IMG/VR virus record: IMGVR_UViG_3300009424_000185
Span: 1-40,402 of that record
Reading direction: 5' to 3' (one strand)
DNA: 40,402 nt
Origin: a virus
Taxonomy: Duplodnaviria; Caudoviricetes
Shown here: in pieces, positions 1,609 through 35,460 of the stretch
How positions within the stretch are numbered: position 1 is the stretch's first letter
How the letters are laid out: each line of letters begins with the position of its first letter
Program-made: the position numbers and the translations under genes
The notes under the pieces: generated by a model
What the model was told of the DNA's origin: nothing
What the model saw: only the letters and a program-made list of their open reading frames with translations
Database searches by the model: none

Positions 1609-2310
1609 GTGTTATCTCCTGTTAAACGATACACCGACAAAGACCTGCCATTCATTGACGGAAACCCAAAAATTTACGTATGTCTGGGCGGTCAATTCGG
1701 TTTAATCACTACTATGTTCGCTCAAATTGGTTTTGCTAAAGCCAAAACTATTGAAGAAGCTGACTTGATTGTTTACGGAGGAGGTAACGATGTGTCTCCT
1801 TCCTTCTATAATCAAAAACCTATTCTTCAATGTGGTTGGCCGGACAAGGATCGAGACAATCTTGAGAAACAAATCTTTGAAAAAGCTGTTGAACTTGGTA
1901 TCCCTCAAATGGGTATTTGCCGAGGCGCACAGTTTCTTCATGTAATGTGTGGGGGTTCTTTATGGCAACATGTTAACAATCACACGAAGTCTCATATGAT
2001 GTTTGACATTACTTCTAATGTTCTTGTTTACACATCATCAACCCACCATCAAATGATGCAATTCAACGAAGACATGACTCTTCTTGCTTGTTGTGACGAT
2101 GATGTTGCTACTTTTTTCAAAGATGAACTTCAAACTATCGACTACAAAAAAGAACATGATGTTCAATTGGAAGTAGAAGTTTGTTCCTATGAAAAGTATA
2201 GGACATTGTGCATTCAAGGGCACCCTGAATATGGTCCTCTTGAATTTACTTCTTGGTCTTTACATCTTCTCAAGGACTGGTTCACTGTAAATAGAAAGGA
2301 AAATAACTAA
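1609..2310 (+). CDS. Class I glutamine amidotransferase / peptidase C26-like
   Basis: GGGNDV oxyanion strand, GICRGAQ nucleophile elbow and QGHPE triad. AAGGA RBS upstream of GTG. Confidence 0.92.
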   Translation: MLSPVKRYTDKDLPFIDGNPKIYVCLGGQFGLITTMFAQIGFAKAKTIEEADLIVYGGGNDVSPSFYNQKPILQCGWPDKDRDNLEKQIFEKAVELGIPQMGICRGAQFLHVMCGGSLWQHVNNHTKSHMMFDITSNVLVYTSSTHHQMMQFNEDMTLLACCDDDVATFFKDELQTIDYKKEHDVQLEVEVCSYEKYRTLCIQGHPEYGPLEFTSWSLHLLKDWFTVNRKENN

Positions 2311-3719
2311 TGTGTGGAATTGTAGGAATGGCAGGCGATCTAAATATTAAGGATCGAGACCTTTTTGAAGACCTTCTAACTGTTTGCCAGCTTCGAGGCC
2401 GAGACTCTACAGGAGTTATTCGTGTATCGAAAGAAAAGGAAGGATATTCTTGGGCAAAAAATCTTGGAACCCCTGAGTATCTATTCGAGAGTCGAACTTA
2501 TAATCGAGAAATTCGTCAAATCGGTATAAGCGCATTGGTGGGTCATTGTCGTCATAAAACTATTGGAGATGTTTCTATTTCTTCTGCTCACCCTTTCGAT
2601 ATTGAAGAGAAAGGAATCGTGGGTGTTCATAACGGCACCCTTAAGAATTTCTATAGGTTTCCTGAGCATAAAAGTGGTATGGTCGATAGTCAAGTCATCT
2701 ATGAACGTATTGCTTTGCACGGTGCAATTGAGACCTTCTCTGATCTTGAAGGCGCTTACGCCTGTGTATGGTGGGATCAAGAAGCAGGGAAACTAAACTT
2801 TATTCGTAACAAAGAACGCCCTCTTTGGTATACTTACAGCAAAGATTGTCGTAAGATGTTTTGGGCTAGCGAGCCTTGGATGTTTGGGGCTATCTATCGT
2901 AAAGAAAATCTTTGGGACGGCGGAAAAGAAGGTAAAGTTTACCGATCTTTTGAAGAAGATGTTCTTTACTCTATTGAAATCTCTCCTAACGCCTATAAAG
3001 GCAAACCCGTATTTAAGGTGTCGGAGAGTAAGAAGATAGAAAAAAAAGAACAATTCTCAGTTGGGTTTCAAGGAAACGGAACTCATTGTTGTTTCAGGAC
3101 GAATACGAACGGGGCTTCTACGAATACAACTTCAGAAAATAAAGGAGGAGAGGTAGCCAACCCTTTTCTCAACGACGAACTGCCCCAACATTTGACAGTT
3201 CCGGCCAAGCAGCCCGCGAAAACTACAAAGTTTGGGACTACACAACAGAACAACAACAATTCTACCACTCCCTCGAAGCTCTCCTTGGTCCAGTCAGTGC
3301 CATCGACGAGTACGGAATCTTCGTCGAAGTTCTCGATATCCCCTCCGTTCAACAGTTCGCCTCCCTCTCAAAGAACCAACAGAAAAAAACTATCCGTCGT
3401 TTCCGACGTCAAGCAAAACGATGGATCGAAAAACAACGAGCCTGATACATCCAATATTTATCAAGCTAACGTGGGTGTTGACACTCGTTATATTTACGTT
3501 GTCGATACTGAGTATATCACAGACCTTCGAACTAAAGTCGAAGTAAGTGAACAAGAGTTCAAAGAAAATACAGGAGGAGCCTGTTGTCATTGTGAAGTAG
3601 AAATAACAAGTCTAAAAGAAGTAGCGGAGATTTTTGATAAAGGTAAACGATTTATTTGTAAAACTTGCGTAACACCTAATTCAAATTATGTTTATGATGT
3701 AATAAAGGAGCTTGCATAA
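2310..3719 (+). CDS. Class II (Ntn) glutamine amidotransferase with low-complexity linker and C-terminal Zn finger
   Basis: MCGIVG (Cys1), RGRDSTG, GHCRH, HPF, HNGT, DS, GAYA and RNxERPL motifs. C-terminal CxxC...CxxC. Confidence 0.93.
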   Translation: MCGIVGMAGDLNIKDRDLFEDLLTVCQLRGRDSTGVIRVSKEKEGYSWAKNLGTPEYLFESRTYNREIRQIGISALVGHCRHKTIGDVSISSAHPFDIEEKGIVGVHNGTLKNFYRFPEHKSGMVDSQVIYERIALHGAIETFSDLEGAYACVWWDQEAGKLNFIRNKERPLWYTYSKDCRKMFWASEPWMFGAIYRKENLWDGGKEGKVYRSFEEDVLYSIEISPNAYKGKPVFKVSESKKIEKKEQFSVGFQGNGTHCCFRTNTNGASTNTTSENKGGEVANPFLNDELPQHLTVPAKQPAKTTKFGTTQQNNNNSTTPSKLSLVQSVPSTSTESSSKFSISPPFNSSPPSQRTNRKKLSVVSDVKQNDGSKNNEPDTSNIYQANVGVDTRYIYVVDTEYITDLRTKVEVSEQEFKENTGGACCHCEVEITSLKEVAEIFDKGKRFICKTCVTPNSNYVYDVIKELA

Positions 3720-4625
3720 ATGACTAACTATAGTCCTAAATTTACAATTGGTTGTGACCCGGAAGTATTCGTAACAAAGAGAGGGAAACCTTTCAGTGCT
3801 TACAATATTCTTGAGGGTACTAAAGAAAGTCCTCATAAAACTATCGGAGGTGCGTATCAAGTGGATGGTATGGCTGCTGAGTTTAATACCGATCCTGTTG
3901 CCTTAAGAACTTATCGAGGATATGAAACAAAAGAATTTCACCATTGGAATAATTTGATTACTTCTCAGATTAAACAAATCAGGGATAATCTACCTAAAGG
4001 TTGTTCTCTAAAAATTTCTCCTACCATGAATTTCGGTAAAGAGTTTCTGGATAAACAACCGGATGAGGCTAAAGAGCTAGGTTGCGATCCTGATTACAAT
4101 GCCTATACTCTTGAAGAAAATCCTCGTCCTGATGGAGAAAAAACTTTCCGAACGGGGGCAGGTCATATTCATATTGGCTGGGGTAGTGACATTCCCCCTC
4201 TTAATGAAGAGCATATGGAAATTTGTGCTAACTTCATTAAAACATTGGACGCTACTGTGGGTTTGTTCATGACGTTTGTTGATCGTGACCCTCTCCGCAG
4301 AGAACTTTACGGTAAAGCCGGGGCGTTTCGACCAAAACCCTATGGTGTAGAGTATCGAACGCCTTCGAATGTTTGGATTAAAAACAAAGACATGCGTGAA
4401 TGTATTTGGCTTTTGGTGCAAATGGCAATAACGTACCAAATGCAACATAAAACCCAAATAGATATTTGTGGTTTTGAAAATGTTCAAAAAGTAATTGATG
4501 AAGGAAACCACCAAGAGGCTTTAAAAGGTCTTTATTACCTTCTAAGGTTAAAATATTATTGGTTAGAACCTAGTTGTTTTGGCAGGGTAATTGCAAAAAC
4601 GAAAGAGGAATATGGTGATGCCTAA
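3720..4625 (+). CDS. phiEco32-like COOH-NH2 ligase type 2
   Basis: IGCDPE, DGMAAEFN, GCDPDYNAY, GHIHIG, RRELYGKAGAFRPKPYGVEYRTPSN motifs. Confidence 0.92.
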   Translation: MTNYSPKFTIGCDPEVFVTKRGKPFSAYNILEGTKESPHKTIGGAYQVDGMAAEFNTDPVALRTYRGYETKEFHHWNNLITSQIKQIRDNLPKGCSLKISPTMNFGKEFLDKQPDEAKELGCDPDYNAYTLEENPRPDGEKTFRTGAGHIHIGWGSDIPPLNEEHMEICANFIKTLDATVGLFMTFVDRDPLRRELYGKAGAFRPKPYGVEYRTPSNVWIKNKDMRECIWLLVQMAITYQMQHKTQIDICGFENVQKVIDEGNHQEALKGLYYLLRLKYYWLEPSCFGRVIAKTKEEYGDA

Positions 4626-5295
4626 TGAAGAAAAGAATAAGTTCTTCTGGACAGATGAAGTTCAAGCTCAAGAACGGTTGAACAATACTTTCATTAAACA
4701 CAATGATGATGTTGTATTTGTTTCTCACATCGAAAATGAAAAGATTTTCTACATCAATTACGTGGATGACACTATTGGTAACGATACTCTAGATAGTGTT
4801 TCATGGAAAAGATTTAGAGTTCTTCCCCCTATCGGTTGGCTGAATATTGACAGACAAAAAGATGTTCACCGGGGAGTAAAAAAGTATGTCGGTGGTGTCT
4901 ATCTTAACCGTAGGGCAGTTCGTTCTCGTTCTCACGGCCTTAATGACACCAACATACAAATTTTTAGTTTTCAACCAGATGAGAAAGGCCTTGTTAACGA
5001 CAAAAGTTTCATACTGAAAGATGTTTATAAGTGCGGGTTCTACAAAGACCCTGAACAATACCCTTCTTTCACGGAAGCTTTCAGGCATTTGCGTAATGGT
5101 TTTTGTGTCGCTCTTTCTCCTAAGTTTGCTTTGATTAAAGACAGCGACGGTCTTACTTGGTTATACCGAAAAAGACTTAAAGTGGCTCTCATTCCTAATG
5201 TTGCCACTCTTTTCCTTTTAGCATCGTGTAAATATTATCGAGAAGACATTCTAGAAAACCACCACATTCTTCCTCTCGAACTTAAGGAATTGTAA
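4618..5295 (+). CDS. Hypothetical protein in the amidoligase cluster
   Basis: Translationally coupled ORF with GAGGA RBS before ATG 4612/4618. Confidence 0.8.
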   Translation: MPNEEKNKFFWTDEVQAQERLNNTFIKHNDDVVFVSHIENEKIFYINYVDDTIGNDTLDSVSWKRFRVLPPIGWLNIDRQKDVHRGVKKYVGGVYLNRRAVRSRSHGLNDTNIQIFSFQPDEKGLVNDKSFILKDVYKCGFYKDPEQYPSFTEAFRHLRNGFCVALSPKFALIKDSDGLTWLYRKRLKVALIPNVATLFLLASCKYYREDILENHHILPLELKEL

Positions 5296-5296
5296 A

Positions 5297-6379
5297 ATGT
5301 CGTTTATTGATAAACTTCAAGAAAATTTTGAAGATAATACATCCGTGTTTGTCGGCGGCAAGCCCCTTAATCGTCCTTGCTACGAAAAAGGTCCTATTTT
5401 CCCTGACGGTGAAGTAGGTATCGAATTAGAAATAGAGGGTCAACGGCTTCCTTCGGGCGCTACCATTGCTGATTTGATGTCAAAAGAAACTCAAAAGTAT
5501 TGGGCTGCGGTCAACGACGGTTCTCTTCGCGGTGGTCTGGAATATGTTCTTACGGGTCCTATTAAAACCAGCGAAGTTCGACAAATGGTTGATGGTCTTT
5601 TCAACAAGTTTAAAGAAAACGGTTCTAAAATTAAAAACAGTAATCGTTGTTCAACACACGTTCATGTAAATGTAAGCGATCTTAAAGTAAACGAACTTAC
5701 TTCTGTTATCTCTCTTTGGTGTACGTTTCAAACACCCTTCATTAAATGGTGGGGAGAAGAACGTGTAAGCAATCATTTCTGTCTTTCGTCTCGTGACGAA
5801 GAATCAATGGTATCGTCTTGGATTGCTTATCTTAAGTGTGGTCAGCTTAATATGTATAGAACACGAGACGGATTGAAATATACCGCTTTGAATATTCTTC
5901 CAATTTTTTCTCAAGGGTCTATTGAGTTTAGAGCCGGCGGTCCTCCCAATGATCCTGATAAAGTCGTATATTGGGCCAAGATTTGTAACGCAATTGTACG
6001 TTACGCTGTAGAACATTTTAAAAATCCTTTAGCTCTTGGGTACGCTTTGTCAGAACAAGGTCCTGAAGAACTTTTGATGAGTATTCTCGTGAAAGCTAAT
6101 CTTGGGCCTATCACTTGCCAGAACATCTACCAAGAACTTACCGAGGACGGTCAACTTACCGCCGATGCTTTTAACGACTTTAGAGATGTTCAAGCTCTCT
6201 TGTATTCTTTCCCTTGGGATAATTACATGGGGGAATTTTACAAAGAGATTATTCCTGATCCTTTTGAAACCAAGACAGTAAAATATAATAATTTACTTTT
6301 TGACGTGTTCGAACCAGCAAACCCAGCAATAATCCGCCAACAACCAGAAGAAAGGGATGATTTTGATGACGATGAATAA
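5297..6379 (+). CDS. Putative amidoligase (glutamine-synthetase/COOH-NH2 ligase fold)
   Basis: GIELEIE, DGSLR, EYV, HVHVN, KYTALN and SIEFR motifs. Confidence 0.9.
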   Translation: MSFIDKLQENFEDNTSVFVGGKPLNRPCYEKGPIFPDGEVGIELEIEGQRLPSGATIADLMSKETQKYWAAVNDGSLRGGLEYVLTGPIKTSEVRQMVDGLFNKFKENGSKIKNSNRCSTHVHVNVSDLKVNELTSVISLWCTFQTPFIKWWGEERVSNHFCLSSRDEESMVSSWIAYLKCGQLNMYRTRDGLKYTALNILPIFSQGSIEFRAGGPPNDPDKVVYWAKICNAIVRYAVEHFKNPLALGYALSEQGPEELLMSILVKANLGPITCQNIYQELTEDGQLTADAFNDFRDVQALLYSFPWDNYMGEFYKEIIPDPFETKTVKYNNLLFDVFEPANPAIIRQQPEERDDFDDDE

Positions 6380-7166
6380 AAACCGAAAACGAAGAGTCCG
6401 ACTTATTCCTTATAAACAAGGTTCGCTTTCTTGCAAGAATATAGCAGAAGCTATCGGAGCCAAGAGAATTAAAGTCAACGGGCAAAGTCGTTTCCAAAAC
6501 ACCGCCGATGATTTCTGTATTAATTGGGGTAATTCTGCCGCCTTAGATAATATTGATTATCGTTACGTTCTCAATCATCCAGAAGCAGTACGAGAAACTT
6601 CTAACAAGCTCTCGTTCTTTCAACGTGTGAGCCAAGAAGGTTTGCAAGAACTAGTTCCAAATTTTTATACTAACAAAGAGGACATTCCTAATGATGTATC
6701 GTTTCCAATTGTTTGTCGAACAATTCTCAATGGTCACAGCGGTCGAGGTATCGTTATTGCTAATTGCCGTGATGAGTTGGTTGACGCTCCTCTCTTCACT
6801 CAATACGTAAAGAAGACCACCGAGTATCGTATTCACTTTGCGTATCCGCTGCGGGGTGATAAGCAAGAATCTATCATACTCGCAGTGCAGCAAAAACGTA
6901 GGCGGCTTGACCACGACAACCCGAACTGGCAAATTCGTAATCACGACAACGGTTTTATCTACGCTCGTGAAGATGTAAACCCTCCTGATTGCGTTATTGC
7001 GTCTGCTCGAATGATTTTTGAGCAAGCTACAGACCTTGACTTTGGTGCAGTAGATGTGGTATATAATCAGCACTACGACCGAGCGTACGTTCTAGAAGTC
7101 AATACGGCCCCCGGACTAGAGGGTCAAACACTCAACGACTACGCCAAACACTTTGGAGATATTTAG
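6372..7166 (+). CDS. ATP-grasp ligase (phage type)
   Basis: INWG, NKL, GHSGRGI, EYRIH, IRNHDNGF, DFGAVDV and VLEVNTAPGL motifs. Confidence 0.92.
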   Translation: MNKNRKRRVRLIPYKQGSLSCKNIAEAIGAKRIKVNGQSRFQNTADDFCINWGNSAALDNIDYRYVLNHPEAVRETSNKLSFFQRVSQEGLQELVPNFYTNKEDIPNDVSFPIVCRTILNGHSGRGIVIANCRDELVDAPLFTQYVKKTTEYRIHFAYPLRGDKQESIILAVQQKRRRLDHDNPNWQIRNHDNGFIYAREDVNPPDCVIASARMIFEQATDLDFGAVDVVYNQHYDRAYVLEVNTAPGLEGQTLNDYAKHFGDI

Positions 7167-17022: not shown

Positions 17023-17272
17023 TGAAGAAGCCCCCTTTCTTTTTGATGAAAGTGATGAAGGTGAAACCTATATTGATAATGCCGCAGTATTTTCTATCGA
17101 CTATGATGCCGAACAGTTGATTATTTTTTACGATGGTACTCGTAATATTGTAATGGAACTGGAAGATGAGAATGAAACTATGCTTTGTGATCGTGTTCTC
17201 TCTGATCCAAACTTTTGGTTGAATTTTGTAAACTCGTTTTCACAAGCCCTTAAGCAAAGCAAAGGACAGTAA
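17015..17272 (+). CDS. Small acidic protein (85 aa)
   Basis: GGAG RBS at 17001-17004. ATG overlaps the end of the upstream ORF. Confidence 0.75.
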   Translation: MTDEEAPFLFDESDEGETYIDNAAVFSIDYDAEQLIIFYDGTRNIVMELEDENETMLCDRVLSDPNFWLNFVNSFSQALKQSKGQ

Positions 17273-18348
17273 TGAATAATAATCCATTTCCATCTAGTTA
17301 TGAAGAATTTATTTACAAGAGCCGATATGCCAAATGGATTGAAGAAGAAAGCCGCCGAGAAGATTGGGAAGAAACAGTCGAACGTCTTGTAAATTATTAT
17401 AATAATCAAGTAGATGAAGAGCTACCTCTTGAAGAGTTGTATTCTGCTATTTACAATCTAGAAGTAATGCCCTCTATGCGGGCTCTTATGACTGCTGGCC
17501 CAGCTATGGACCGTTGTCATGTACCTGCTTACAACTGTGCGTATCTTCCCGTAGATAGTCCTCGTAGCTTTGACGAAACGATGTATATTCTCATGTGTGG
17601 AACAGGAGTAGGATATAGTGTTGAAAGTAAATACATTGACCAACTTCCTCGGATCAGTGAGACGTTTGAAGAAACCGAAACAACTATTCGAGTTGCAGAT
17701 AGTAAAGAAGGGTGGTCTAAGTCTTTTAGAGAACTCATCTCTCTTCTTATTGCAGGCCAAATTCCCCGATGGGACGTATCTAACGTGCGACCTGCCGGAG
17801 AACGACTTAAAACTTTTGGAGGAAGGGCGAGTGGGCCAGAACCTCTTGAAGATTTGTTCCGATTTTGTATTAGCCTCTTTCGAAAGGCAGCAGGCCGTAG
17901 ACTGACTTCAGTAGAATGTCATGACATCATGTGTAAGATTGCAGACATTGTTGTGGTCGGTGGTGTTCGTCGTTCGGCAATGATTTCTTTGTTTGATTGC
18001 ACAGATGACCGTATGTCTAAATCCAAGTTTGGCGCTTGGTGGTATGACAATCCTCATCGGGCTCTTGCTAATAATAGTGCGGTTTACGAAAACCGTAGAC
18101 CTGATGTTGGTTTCTTTATGGAAAAATGGAATGAATTATACCAAAGTAAGTCAGGAGAGCCCGGTTTCTTCTCGCGAGCAGCTTGTCAAAGAATTGCAGG
18201 ACGCAATGGGCGACGCGACGTAAAAGAAATTATCTTAGAGACTAATGAAGGTAAAATTACCCTGAAACCATTTGATAAGGTTGTTATTAATGGTAAAGAA
18301 GGATTCGCGTATGAACTCAAAGAGTCCGACGATTTCTCAATATGTTGA
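17272..18348 (+). CDS. nrdJ: Class II (B12-dependent) ribonucleotide reductase, N-terminal fragment
   Basis: SRYA, MPSMR, YNCAY, GTGVG, FGGRASGP, VVGGVRRSA, NNS and GEPG motifs, then a 42-aa non-RNR tail. Confidence 0.9.
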   Translation: MNNNPFPSSYEEFIYKSRYAKWIEEESRREDWEETVERLVNYYNNQVDEELPLEELYSAIYNLEVMPSMRALMTAGPAMDRCHVPAYNCAYLPVDSPRSFDETMYILMCGTGVGYSVESKYIDQLPRISETFEETETTIRVADSKEGWSKSFRELISLLIAGQIPRWDVSNVRPAGERLKTFGGRASGPEPLEDLFRFCISLFRKAAGRRLTSVECHDIMCKIADIVVVGGVRRSAMISLFDCTDDRMSKSKFGAWWYDNPHRALANNSAVYENRRPDVGFFMEKWNELYQSKSGEPGFFSRAACQRIAGRNGRRDVKEIILETNEGKITLKPFDKVVINGKEGFAYELKESDDFSIC

Positions 18349-18400
18349 TAAAAACGAATACCTGCTAAGAAAGGCGGTGAAATACCTTGAAAGTAATTAA
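18342..18400 (+). pseudogene. Probable remnant of a deleted EndoVII-type homing endonuclease gene
   Basis: ATG at 18342 overlaps the end of nrdJ-N (MLIK...). A third frame reads ...DKNEYLLRKAVKYLESN*, resembling the LxxAxxYL C-terminal helix of endonuclease VII family proteins. Confidence 0.5.
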
Positions 18401-19385
18401 ACGAACCGATGTCAGTAACAACACAGAGTGGGGGACCAACCCTTGCAGTGAAATTATCCTGCGACCATTTCAATTCTGCAACCTTACTGAGGTTGTTGTC
18501 CGAGCAGAAGATACTTTGGAAAATCTTACTAGAAAGGTTAGAATTGCTACAATCCTCGGAACTATTCAGTCTACTTTCACCAACTTCAAATACTTAAGAA
18601 AGAAATGGCAGGATACGTGCAATGAAGAACGACTACTTGGTGTTTCGCTTACGGGTATCTGCGATAATCTCGACCTTGTTGGACGACCAGAAGTTCTTGA
18701 TGAGCTTCGACAAACCGCAGTGGACACAAACAAGGAATGGGCAGAACGACTCGGGATTAACCAAAGCGTTGCAGTCACTTGTGTTAAACCCTCTGGAACT
18801 GTTAGCCAGCTTGTTAATTCTGCTAGCGGTCTACATACTCGCCATGCTCCATATTACCTACGAACTGTTAGGGCTGATAACAAAGACCCTGTTACACAGT
18901 TTCTCAAAGATCAGGGAGTTTATAGTGAACCGTGCGTAATGAAAGGAGATACCACTACAGTATTTTACTTTCCAATTAAAACACCGGAGAATAGCGTAAC
19001 CCGACATGACCAAACTTCTATTGAAGCACTCGATCTTTGGAAAACTCTTCAAGATCATTGGTGTGAACATAAACCCTCTGCCACAATCAACGTCAAGGAA
19101 AATGAATGGCCAAAGGTCGGGGCGTGGGTATATGAGAACTTTGAGAGTCTCTCAGGTGTCTCGTTCCTACCGTATGATGGAGGATCATATAAACAGGCAC
19201 CATATCAAGAACTTACAGAAGAAGAATGGAACGATTGGGTTCAACTTCACCCACCTGTAATTGTAGATTGGAGCGTTCTCAAAGAATATGAGAAGACAGA
19301 TCACACTACGGCATCACAAGAACTCGCTTGCACAGGAAATGTATGCGAGGTTGTAACTATAGGAGAAAGTAATTATGATGGGTAA
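18387..19385 (+). CDS. nrdJ: Class II ribonucleotide reductase, C-terminal fragment
   Basis: GTNPCSE, FCNLTE, LLGVS, VKPSGTVSQL, EHKPSAT and terminal ACTGNVC. AAGGCGGTG RBS before TTG. Confidence 0.9.
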   Translation: MKVIKRTDVSNNTEWGTNPCSEIILRPFQFCNLTEVVVRAEDTLENLTRKVRIATILGTIQSTFTNFKYLRKKWQDTCNEERLLGVSLTGICDNLDLVGRPEVLDELRQTAVDTNKEWAERLGINQSVAVTCVKPSGTVSQLVNSASGLHTRHAPYYLRTVRADNKDPVTQFLKDQGVYSEPCVMKGDTTTVFYFPIKTPENSVTRHDQTSIEALDLWKTLQDHWCEHKPSATINVKENEWPKVGAWVYENFESLSGVSFLPYDGGSYKQAPYQELTEEEWNDWVQLHPPVIVDWSVLKEYEKTDHTTASQELACTGNVCEVVTIGESNYDG

Positions 19386-19551: not shown

Positions 19552-19590
19552 AAAAGGCCCGCCGGGAGAATATCCTAGCGGGCCTTTTTG
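19552..19590. terminator. Bidirectional intrinsic terminator between the convergent arms
   Basis: AAAAGGCCCGC...GCGGGCCTTTTT inverted repeat with A/T tracts on both sides. Confidence 0.9.
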
Positions 19591-32984: not shown

Positions 32985-33006
32985 ATTTTATTCCTTAAAT
33001 ATGAGA

Positions 33007-33048
33007 CTTGGGGCGTACACAAGTGTTACCTTGCGCAGAGGCCCCAAG
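33007..33048 (-). promoter_or_regulatory. Stem-loop immediately after the coat gene (no U-tract)
   Basis: CTTGGGGC/GCCCCAAG outer stem plus an 8-bp inner stem that pairs, through G-U, only on the - strand. Confidence 0.6.
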
Positions 33049-33060
33049 CATATTGTTAGA

Positions 33061-34350
33061 TTACGAACCGTTAATTCGAACCAGACGACGACGAGCGTTT
33101 GCAACGATGTTAGGCTCGATAGCCACATCGAAACGAACACGGTGTTCGCCAGTTTCAAACTTCGAGTCCTGCCACATGCGAACCGACATAGGGAGCTTAG
33201 TCAGCTCCTTACGCATCGAAATACCCGTTGCCGGAACGATGAGGTCCATAGTGTGAACGCAAACAGCACCCTTGTTAGCAAGGAAACGAGGCTTGAGAAC
33301 CGCACCCGGCGCACCAACAAACGTCACTACAGCCGTGTTCTCAGGAGCCGCCGAAACGGTCTGGAATGGACCAGAAGTAACAATTGCCGGATAAACACGA
33401 GGAGCAACAGCACCAATAGAAGCGGTAAAGTTACCTACAACACGGAACTGCTGAAGATGCGGAAGCGCCTTCTTAGCCCGATTGTCCCAAGCAAAGACAC
33501 CAGCGATAGTGAATACTTCACCATCAACGATAGTCTCAGAACCCGCACCAATATCCATGTTAAGGATTTGAGTGAGGTACTGGCCCGGAGCACCGGAGAT
33601 ACAGTAGTCTTCGTAGGCTCCAGCCGAGTCTGCTGTACCAGCCGTCAAGGCCGAAGCCGTCTGACGAGTACCAACAGTAAAGCTTGGAAGTTGCTGGGTA
33701 AAGGTCGTCGGGATACCCGCAATAGAACCTTGCCAGCCGCTACGATAAACACCATTACCAAGACCAGTCAGGTTACCCGTAACGTTGGTCTCAACAATAT
33801 CCCTACCGAGAGCCTGCTTATCTTCGTAAGCCATGATTGCACGAAGCATCGAGTCGTCTTCACAACCTTCCTGCTTAAGGCGGGTGTAGCCAGCGGCCAC
33901 ATCATCCCAAGTCGAAACGTTCGAAGAACCATCGCCCAAAAGGTTGTTCGATGCAAGAGCAGCAAAGCGCAGAATGTAGGCATCAATGTCATGTGCGAGA
34001 CGCAGAGCAGCAGCCTTGATTGCTTCGCTTTCACGAGCATCACCGATGTCCCGAATCTTCACGAAGTCGCCCCAGCCCATGCTAGTGCCCACAACATTGC
34101 GGAGGCGATACTGTTCGGAACCGAACGTAGTATCTTGAACACCACTACTGAGATCAGCAACAGACTCGTCCGTAAACGTAGTCGAGTAATCAGGAGTAAC
34201 CTGTTCAACAACAGTAAGGCCATTACGGTCGTTCATTTCTCCAGTGTGTTTATTCCAAGTCACGAGGTCCTTCGAGACAAGGTTATTTTGAAAGATCGCA
34301 GCAAAAGATTTAAGGACCAATTTTGCCTGATCGACAGTTACAGTAGCCAT
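33061..34350 (-). CDS. Major capsid protein (P22 coat-like)
   Basis: 429 aa following the scaffold gene, G.IAG..T, GEVFTIAGV insertion domain, RFDV C-terminus, strong codon bias. Confidence 0.88.
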   Translation of the reverse strand: MATVTVDQAKLVLKSFAAIFQNNLVSKDLVTWNKHTGEMNDRNGLTVVEQVTPDYSTTFTDESVADLSSGVQDTTFGSEQYRLRNVVGTSMGWGDFVKIRDIGDARESEAIKAAALRLAHDIDAYILRFAALASNNLLGDGSSNVSTWDDVAAGYTRLKQEGCEDDSMLRAIMAYEDKQALGRDIVETNVTGNLTGLGNGVYRSGWQGSIAGIPTTFTQQLPSFTVGTRQTASALTAGTADSAGAYEDYCISGAPGQYLTQILNMDIGAGSETIVDGEVFTIAGVFAWDNRAKKALPHLQQFRVVGNFTASIGAVAPRVYPAIVTSGPFQTVSAAPENTAVVTFVGAPGAVLKPRFLANKGAVCVHTMDLIVPATGISMRKELTKLPMSVRMWQDSKFETGEHRVRFDVAIEPNIVANARRRLVRINGS

Positions 34351-34413
34351 AATGACTATTTCCTTTCGTATGAGTTTTTGTATAGTTTTGTGTCCATACG
34401 AAAATCACACCAA

Positions 34414-35460
34414 TTAATTACCTTTAAAGAAAACACTTTCAAAATCGTCTAGATTATCGAGGTCTTTCTTTTTAGGTGCAGACGTTCCCCTCGTTGTAGG
34501 AGGAGGCGGCGGTGCGTTGGTTACTTTCGTACGAGACGTGTTTTTTGTTTTTGGCCCATCGTTTGTATCGAACTGCACTGAAAGGCGTCCAAGTTCCACA
34601 CTAGCAAGTGCAGGACCTCTACGAACAATTTCATTTGCAAGTTCAGGGTTTGAAGCCAAATGATAAAGAATGTCCGGCCCGTTGTCAATTGAACGAATAG
34701 TGTCCGTAAGATACTTAGCATAATTAGGTTCAAGATCGCTAAATTGGTCAATTAGTTCTTGACCACGTTCCTGAAAATCGGGATAACGCTCCCGTGCGGG
34801 TGCTAATTTTTCTTCCCATTGCTGTTGAACAGCTTTTTCAGCTTCCTGAATTTTACGTGCCTGTTCCTTTTCAGCTTGCTGTTTTTGGAACTGCTGCTGT
34901 TCTTCTCGGATGGTGTAACGTACAAGGTCCGAATTAAACTTTGGATCAAATTGACCCAACGGATAAATCTTGTTTCCTTCTGCGTCTTCATCATCCCAAT
35001 GGGGCGGTTTAATTTCTTCGTTGTTTTCTTTTGACTTTGGCTTTTCTTCTTCACCAGTTTTCGGAAGTTCAGAAGTTTTATTATCACGATTACGAAGAAG
35101 CTCTTCAAGCTCCATACGCTTACGCTCTTCTTCACGATACTTAGCATTTAGTTCACGAATACGTTTTTCAGCTCGACTTTCTTTCTTAGGAGTTTCCTCT
35201 TCAGAAGTATCGTCATCATTGCTCGAAGTCTCTTCTTCGTCGTCCGTGTCTTCTTCGCTGTTCGTTTCTTCCGAAGTAGTTTTTTCAACACTATCTTCTT
35301 CTTCGACTGTTTCTTCTACATCAGGCTTTTTTACGGGCGCCTTATTATTCCCCGAGGAAAAGAACTCAGTCTCAAAATCATCAAGACTAGGTTCGTTAGT
35401 AGTTTCAACGGTTTCAGTTGGTTCAGTAGTGTTGTTGTTATTATCGAGATTTTCGCTCAT
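34414..35460 (-). CDS. Scaffolding protein
   Basis: Acidic N-terminus, KRI.EL coiled coil, YPDF, GP.ILY.LA.NP and APPP motifs. Lies between portal and coat. Confidence 0.85.
   Translation of the reverse strand: MSENLDNNNNTTEPTETVETTNEPSLDDFETEFFSSGNNKAPVKKPDVEETVEEEDSVEKTTSEETNSEEDTDDEEETSSNDDDTSEEETPKKESRAEKRIRELNAKYREEERKRMELEELLRNRDNKTSELPKTGEEEKPKSKENNEEIKPPHWDDEDAEGNKIYPLGQFDPKFNSDLVRYTIREEQQQFQKQQAEKEQARKIQEAEKAVQQQWEEKLAPARERYPDFQERGQELIDQFSDLEPNYAKYLTDTIRSIDNGPDILYHLASNPELANEIVRRGPALASVELGRLSVQFDTNDGPKTKNTSRTKVTNAPPPPPTTRGTSAPKKKDLDNLDDFESVFFKGN

Follow-up and report, generated by a model that had tools for sequence, protein, structure and literature searches.

The nrdJ gene in the stretch of phage DNA analysed here (the window; 40,402 nucleotides) is broken into two open reading frames just before the thiyl NPC finger loop, as the first-pass annotation had claimed, and at the break each product carries a short extension that is predicted to derive from one lobe of an intein. 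We consider it likely that the two chains stay unspliced, and that the splicing-dead tail of the first and head of the second act as a non-covalent clasp that rebuilds one active site. The split itself is real and conserved, and the gene is not a pseudogene. The features of the locus are the following.

17272..18348, + strand: nrdJ-a, N-part of a monomeric-type class II RNR, 358 aa (PF17975 and PF21995 above the cut-off; sole PDB match 1L1L, E 6e-22).
17536-17538, + strand: codon of the presumed redox Cys89 of nrdJ-a (YNCAY), aligning with Cys119 of 1L1L.
18217..18345, + strand: C-terminal tail of nrdJ-a, 43 aa, a predicted intein N2-lobe remnant without the block-B His (family alignment; profile match to N-inteins; model pLDDT 89.7).
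18311..18400, + strand: remnant of an EndoVII homing endonuclease gene, 29 codons, the first 17 fused in frame to the last 12 (DNA alignment with loci L367, L358 and L359).
18373..18389, + strand: Shine-Dalgarno-like AAGGCGG and TTG start of nrdJ-b, both lying within the remnant ORF (sequence; the start-to-NPC distance is the same in the family).
18387..18425, + strand: N-terminal head of nrdJ-b, about 13 aa, likely the first C-intein strand (family start pattern; marginal C-intein profile match; a strand in the fused L366 model).
18387..19385, + strand: nrdJ-b, C-part, 332 aa (sole PDB match 1L1L, E 2e-24; conserved in the family alignment).
18444-18446, + strand: codon of the presumed thiyl Cys20 of nrdJ-b (NPC), aligning with Cys408 of 1L1L.
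18477-18479, + strand: codon of Cys31 of nrdJ-b (FCNL), aligning with Cys419 of 1L1L.

Together, the two products have the features of a monomeric-type (1L1L-like) class II RNR: the equivalents of Cys119, Cys408 and Cys419, a C-terminal Cys pair (Cys315/Cys320 of nrdJ-b) and the insertion domain. Enzymes of the 1L1L type are monomeric and require no homodimer. We take the equivalents of Cys119 and Cys419 to be the redox pair and that of Cys408 to form the thiyl radical. The alignments with 1L1L bear out the earlier claim that the redox cysteine of YNCAY (Cys89) is on another chain than the NPC and FCNL cysteines (Cys20 and Cys31). The first-pass annotation had also quoted the tail and head sequences correctly, and its description of the junction stands in that nrdJ-b lies in a different reading frame from nrdJ-a and has its own ribosome-binding site, 7 nt upstream of a TTG start. 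However, its limits of homology have to be redrawn: homology to intact relatives stops at about GRR-D (nrdJ-a residues 315-316) and restarts only at about EWGTNPC (nrdJ-b residue 12-14), so that DVSNN is part of the added head.

Two IMG/VR contigs match 17272-19385 ungapped (100% and 99.95%). Sequencing runs also support the break: contigs of all four runs checked span it with no joint across (two of the four are possibly the source of the window), and independent assemblies agree. Assembly error as the cause of the split is ruled out by these independent gapless contigs and bridging runs. Forty-five loci were compared in all, 30 of them close; 27 of the close ones run unbroken from GRR to GTNPC in about 7 residues, two are from the phage of the window and one (L028) has a different insert. 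In this last locus, NPC of the related nrdJ is closely followed by an insert of some 200 nt (L028:2026-2222) which, by eye, resembles a small group I intron, a reading based on what we take to be the motifs of such introns; Rfam gave no match to it.

The window record (40.4 kb) is estimated to be 84% complete. It encodes a primase-helicase, a family A polymerase, a phiEco32-like ligase cluster and a P22-like portal and coat, and nrdJ is the final large gene in a + strand block and the only RNR match. The ligase cluster (1609-7166) comprises two glutamine amidotransferases, a COOH-NH2 ligase, an amidoligase and an ATP-grasp-like gene. A 483-codon ORF at 33001-34452 (+), opposite the coat gene and without a Pfam match, is probably a shadow frame. 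A scan for promoters and terminators internal to the split nrdJ gave none above chance. Downstream, between converging gene blocks, 19553-19590 forms a G+C-rich inverted repeat with an A run on one side and a T run on the other, resembling a two-way terminator; it escaped the terminator scan because its loop is long. The 17272-19385 stretch is contained in 24 runs from 23 studies (18 possibly the window's own source), and among these 24 listed runs 22 are aquifer and two are hot-spring metagenomes, and none is an RNA run.

The split is shared by a family of phage nrdJ genes. Using the first 45 residues of nrdJ-b as a query, 2,173 matches were obtained; among the 120 of these listed, 25 (the window's own included) begin 17 or 19 residues before NPC with a head of the form M/V-K-I/V. 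This start is found in all 37 other C-parts, with an invariant Lys at position 2. DNA patterns for the head retrieved loci having both tail and head, and in the resulting set of 369 loci, many of which are repeat fetches of one contig, a short frame precedes GTNPCSE in 44: apart from the window type, these comprise 15 types in which both ends are present and a few partial types. Two loci (L243 and L308) were dropped because they matched the head pattern with no head present. A profile built from 15 tails found 47 proteins, of which 45 are NrdJ N-parts or fragments ending at most 70 residues after xRR; the other two are a fused 680-aa NrdJ and an unrelated repeat protein. With a DNA pattern for the N side, 119 loci were obtained, and the split was present in those of the window's own phage only. 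Searches with the window tail as a single sequence returned only itself, a chance repeat protein or nothing, and a search of the ESM Atlas returned short viral clusters without names and one weak RNR-labelled cluster, which is a lead only. Three tails had no match in 50,697 annotated phage records, so that no cultured carrier was found there; the NrdJ of Streptomyces phage Peebs is contiguous (647 aa).

All 15 other complete locus types contain a nuclease-like ORF between tail and head, EndoVII-like in 12 (L367 by scan, PF02945, E 4e-27; the remaining ones judged by motif) and HNH-like in three (L171 by scan, weak, E 0.057). In the closest split relatives of the window, L367 (84-86% identical), L358 and L359, this ORF has about 127 codons. 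Alignment with these loci revealed that the 38-nt spacer between nrdJ-a and nrdJ-b, overlooked in the first-pass annotation, is an EndoVII remnant: 98 of the 127 codons (294 nt) have been deleted in frame, and the remaining ORF extends from within the end of nrdJ-a into the start of nrdJ-b. The remnant contains the ribosome-binding site of nrdJ-b, and its overlap with the nrdJ-b start is as for the whole gene in the relatives. No EndoVII match was found elsewhere in the record, which is an estimated 84% complete. Loci with quite different tail types (L188 and L233 on the one hand, L367, L358 and L359 on the other) have very similar EndoVII ORFs in this position, and L171, L196 and L220 have an HNH-like ORF in place of EndoVII, which suggests that nucleases are exchanged independently of the tails.

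One locus encodes tail and head joined in frame within a single 680-aa NrdJ (L366:1462-3504; protein P0163). Another protein, P0157, is identical to it over the first 346 aa and then stops; the fusion is therefore either a recent event or an assembly slip. A search for the DNA locus behind P0157, the split twin of L366, did not find it, and we regard a natural re-fusion as possible. A further protein, P0124, is a NrdJ middle piece with a C-intein at its start and an N-intein at its end, so that this gene has been split twice.

Three features that define a split intein are absent from the family. The first-pass annotation had noted no Cys1, block-B His or terminal His-Asn in the window, and this holds family-wide. 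None of 35 tails has a Cys in its first five residues (three begin with Ser), and the tails correspond to N-inteins only from residue 45-60 or so, which leaves out block A. Block B TxxH was found in 0 of 35 tails, the aligned position being mostly xxNE, and PxDK in the window clade, and none of 38 heads has His-Asn followed by C/S/T. Tail and head are therefore not a split intein, and from their sequences protein trans-splicing is not expected. An intron core in the window insert was not found either: the insert folds no better than shuffled sequences (z +0.45), and the spacer encodes protein and varies between relatives. Rfam was also blank for this insert, which counts for little because it also missed that of L028.

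The resemblance of the tails to the end of an N-intein and of the heads to the start of a C-intein, which had been suggested in the first-pass annotation, is supported at the level of the family. When a profile of the 35 tails was aligned with one of nine real N-inteins using hhalign, 36 columns aligned with the last 40 intein residues (probability 85%, score 31.1); none of 150 column shuffles reached this score (maximum 14.2), and RNR windows outside the tail reached at most 15.2. This was a targeted one-template test, for which annotated phage records and P0124 supplied the nine N-inteins. The nine tails of the window clade taken alone did not align with the right part of the intein profile, and the match of the heads to five C-inteins was marginal (13.74 versus a shuffle maximum of 13.72). 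Among 13,227 ORFs, the best non-member match of the tail profile was the end of the UvsW N-intein of Salmonella phage S16 (E 0.99). At the uvsW locus of this cultured phage (L370:1655-4381), what looks like a complete split intein has a nuclease-like ORF separating its halves; the record carries no intein annotation. Single tails had no Hint family match in Pfam, NCBIfam or PHROGs, and the best E value of the tail profile in searches of the PDB was 0.08.

Structure prediction pointed to the same part of the intein. The AlphaFold model of the natural fused tail and head of L366 is a compact beta domain in which the head is taken in as a long strand (pLDDT of about 80 over residues 11-60; alignment depth of 2 for the head). 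Compared with 48,161 chains, the top 24 of the 50 matches listed were all Hint (best Z 6.7, rmsd 3.6, 59 residues aligned). For the model of the window tail, the top 14 of the 25 structural matches listed were Hint, as were 20 of the 25 overall, and the tail maps onto residues 52-95 of Npu DnaE-N, 43-85 of gp41-1 and 60-105 of NrdJ-1. The Foldseek comparison with Hint domains proposed in the first-pass annotation held for the fused model, with inteins in the top five rows (E 0.04-0.23), but not for the window tail alone, for which other folds ranked first. As all Z scores are below 8 and all Foldseek E values above 0.03, each structural match alone is modest. Homology to the Hint fold is seen for one lobe only, by profile and structural ranks: the mapped stretch is the C-terminal half of the N-intein and matches the N2 lobe. 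Functional split inteins capture the C-intein through charges on the N2 lobe, and N2 and the C-intein make the first, charge-driven contact (PMC11923092). From profiles and models together, the tail is predicted to correspond to the N2 lobe of an N-intein, with the head supplying the first C-intein strand to complete it; these rescue tails probably represent a reused intein lobe.

Purifying selection acts on tails and heads just as it does on the catalytic core: with codons overlapping the nuclease excluded, pooled pN/pS values from six independent pairs were 0.17 for the tail, 0.15 for the head (few codons), 0.18 for the N core and 0.20 for the C core. The charges of tail and head are anticorrelated (rho -0.79; 14 loci, which are phylogenetically non-independent). 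On a tree of the C core (42 rows after dereplication of 80: 14 split, one fused and 27 intact), the split state requires nine changes, at least six of them forced, and 18 of 500 label shuffles were equally low. The window allele clusters with the intact L003 and the split L367. This pattern fits homing or repeated conversion, in either direction.

In the mechanism that we propose, tail and head would fold together as one intein lobe and likely form a non-covalent clasp through which two unspliced chains rebuild one active site. The small beta domain would hang off a surface loop and tether the start of chain b, and hence the finger loop, to chain a. Tail, nuclease and head would constitute a homing cassette derived from a split-intein locus, which may spread among nrdJ alleles, swap nucleases, and lose its nuclease or re-fuse. 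The mini-ORF of the window may have been retained because it is the source of the ribosome-binding site, and possibly of translational coupling, for chain b; as one deletion in three would preserve the frame by chance, such coupling is no more than a suggestion. We also entertain, tentatively, a wider idea: the capture lobe of a split intein might have found a second use as a splicing-free, portable dimerisation module that moves together with homing endonucleases and allows essential genes to be cut in two without killing, with the NrdJ family as one deployment, the T4 gp39/gp60 pendant as another, and about 42 + 13 residues as a natural heterodimerisation pair.

The established RNR fold implies a large barrel interface between the two NrdJ pieces, and the barrel halves might assemble unaided; the Hint-derived tails would then have been retained for a different purpose, for example to cap the cut loop, to position the finger loop or B12 site, or to stabilise the chains, and would not be the main binding force. 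In line with this, tail-less pieces of the Aeh1 enzyme still heterodimerised, but were inactive (PMC3045599). We nevertheless think unaided assembly rather unlikely: the piece that has been kept is the very lobe with which split-intein association begins (PMC11923092), the two ends are invariably retained as a pair and their charges co-vary, and the role of the Aeh1 tails in large-subunit dimerisation has no obvious counterpart in a monomeric 1L1L-type enzyme. It is less probable still that the tails are a small beta module resembling Hint by convergence or remote chance. The low Z-scores, the lack of a library match, the failure of the profile made from the window clade alone and the marginal head match would agree with convergence, but the sequence profile and two independent models indicate the same 40-residue intein stretch, and tail and head flank the nuclease gene in intein order at the natural split point of inteins (PMC2677866).

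That a single chain is made after all, by RNA splicing, by ribosomal bypassing or frameshifting, or by non-canonical protein splicing, appears highly improbable. L028 does have its different, intron-like insert at NPC, and a fused allele exists in L366; against this, the window insert shows no folding beyond its shuffles, the spacer in the relatives is a different, whole nuclease gene, the start codon lies at a conserved fixed distance, there are stops in both frames and splicing residues are missing. We give the least credence to a decaying pseudogene broken by nuclease insertion. RNR is dispensable for many phages, and in the window the nuclease itself has been deleted; yet every catalytic cysteine is retained, pN/pS is 0.15-0.20 throughout and the same break recurs across dozens of lineages. 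A clasp between two unspliced chains remains our preferred reading.

The natural series at one site, comprising intact genes, genes split with a nuclease, split with the nuclease deleted and re-fused, makes the tolerance of gene fission directly testable. Because this class II type does not need a homodimer, a role as clasp can be studied apart from the one in dimerisation known from Aeh1. Clasp function and use as a tag are what we infer; if the peptides bind alone, they would make a very small two-part tag with natural variants. The literature searched, which covered main texts and few subscription papers, contained no report of this NrdJ site or of a demonstrated Hint origin for non-splicing tails, so that the present assignment would be the first structural identity in that literature for tails that rescue nuclease-split enzymes; the supplements of bioRxiv 10.1101/2022.08.31.505936, with alignments of MobE splits, may bear on novelty.

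Among known systems, the layout is that of other genes in pieces, with a free-standing nuclease (15 of 15 other types, and a remnant in the window) and conserved non-host extensions on both pieces. In T4, a MobA element splits topoisomerase II into gp39 and gp60, which have C- and N-terminal extensions, respectively; Manning and Atkins described conserved extensions, nuclease swap, nuclease loss and secondary fusion for T4-type topoisomerases and suggested a general strategy (bioRxiv 10.1101/2022.08.31.505936). A 2024 structure of an artificially fused gp39-gp60 shows the extensions as a pendant domain, an assembly bracket (PMC11461880). The NrdJ family resembles this system in having a nuclease in an essential gene, conserved extensions on both pieces, swapped or lost nucleases and a secondary fusion, but the host enzyme is another one, the nuclease is EndoVII or HNH and there is no bypass cassette. 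The T4 papers draw no link to inteins: the main text of PMC11461880 mentions neither intein nor Hint, and the preprint contrasts the extensions with inteins (bioRxiv 10.1101/2022.08.31.505936). Using hhalign, gp39 tails matched NrdJ tails weakly (probability 47-49%, scores of 21.5-22.2 versus shuffle maxima of 18.0-20.7, 0 of 100 shuffles); in the pairwise comparison, 107 of 2000 shuffles scored as high, and against inteins two of 100. Foldseek ranked the gp39 pendant sixth for the window tail (E 2.2), and structural comparison with 8yo3 did not confirm the weak T4 tail likeness (Z below 2). Weakly NrdJ-tail-like gp39 tails were observed at L380:1779-1943 (the T4 gp39 C-terminus) and in L382-L386, and four of the five gp60 starts examined are head-like. 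The T4 extensions are possibly the same module as the NrdJ tail and head.

The first-pass annotation had likened the locus to nrdA-a/mobE/nrdA-b of phage Aeh1. The analogy holds for the layout, with active-site cysteines on two chains, a nuclease gene between them, tails on both pieces and no splicing (PMC3045599), but not for the tails: in single-sequence comparisons, those of Aeh1 score at background against NrdJ tails (5.6 and 7.3) and also lack an intein match, and they are unnecessary for the heterodimer and serve large-subunit dimerisation (PMC3045599). Moreover, the Aeh1 enzyme is class Ia and split after the thiyl cysteine, whereas the NrdJ of the window is class II and split before it. 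By analogy with the Aeh1 and T4 split enzymes, the window NrdJ would work as two unligated chains. The Aeh1 authors raised a degenerate-intein origin as a possibility (PMC3045599), and our results support the intein origin that Crona et al. raised without evidence.

Dassa et al. described fractured genes with split inteins (NrdJ-1/NrdJ-2 and gp41-7) that have the same order of N-part, free-standing nuclease and C-part, with the break between intein motifs N4 and C2 and a model that includes nuclease loss (step III) and re-fusion (PMC2677866). These contain whole inteins at the thiyl cysteine (PMC2677866), whereas in the window about 42 + 13 residues are left, some 5-9 residues upstream of NPC, without blocks A, B-His, F and G. 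Split phage RNRs also include nrdA of Listeria phages A511 and P100, with intein traces reported between the pieces, and nrdJ-a/b of Thermus phage phiYS40 (PMC3653736), which differs in being split at another site, near the C-terminus (797 + 199 aa). The locus in the window is therefore a nuclease-split enzyme of a kind already known, in which the probable Hint-lobe tails and the NrdJ site are new in the literature searched.
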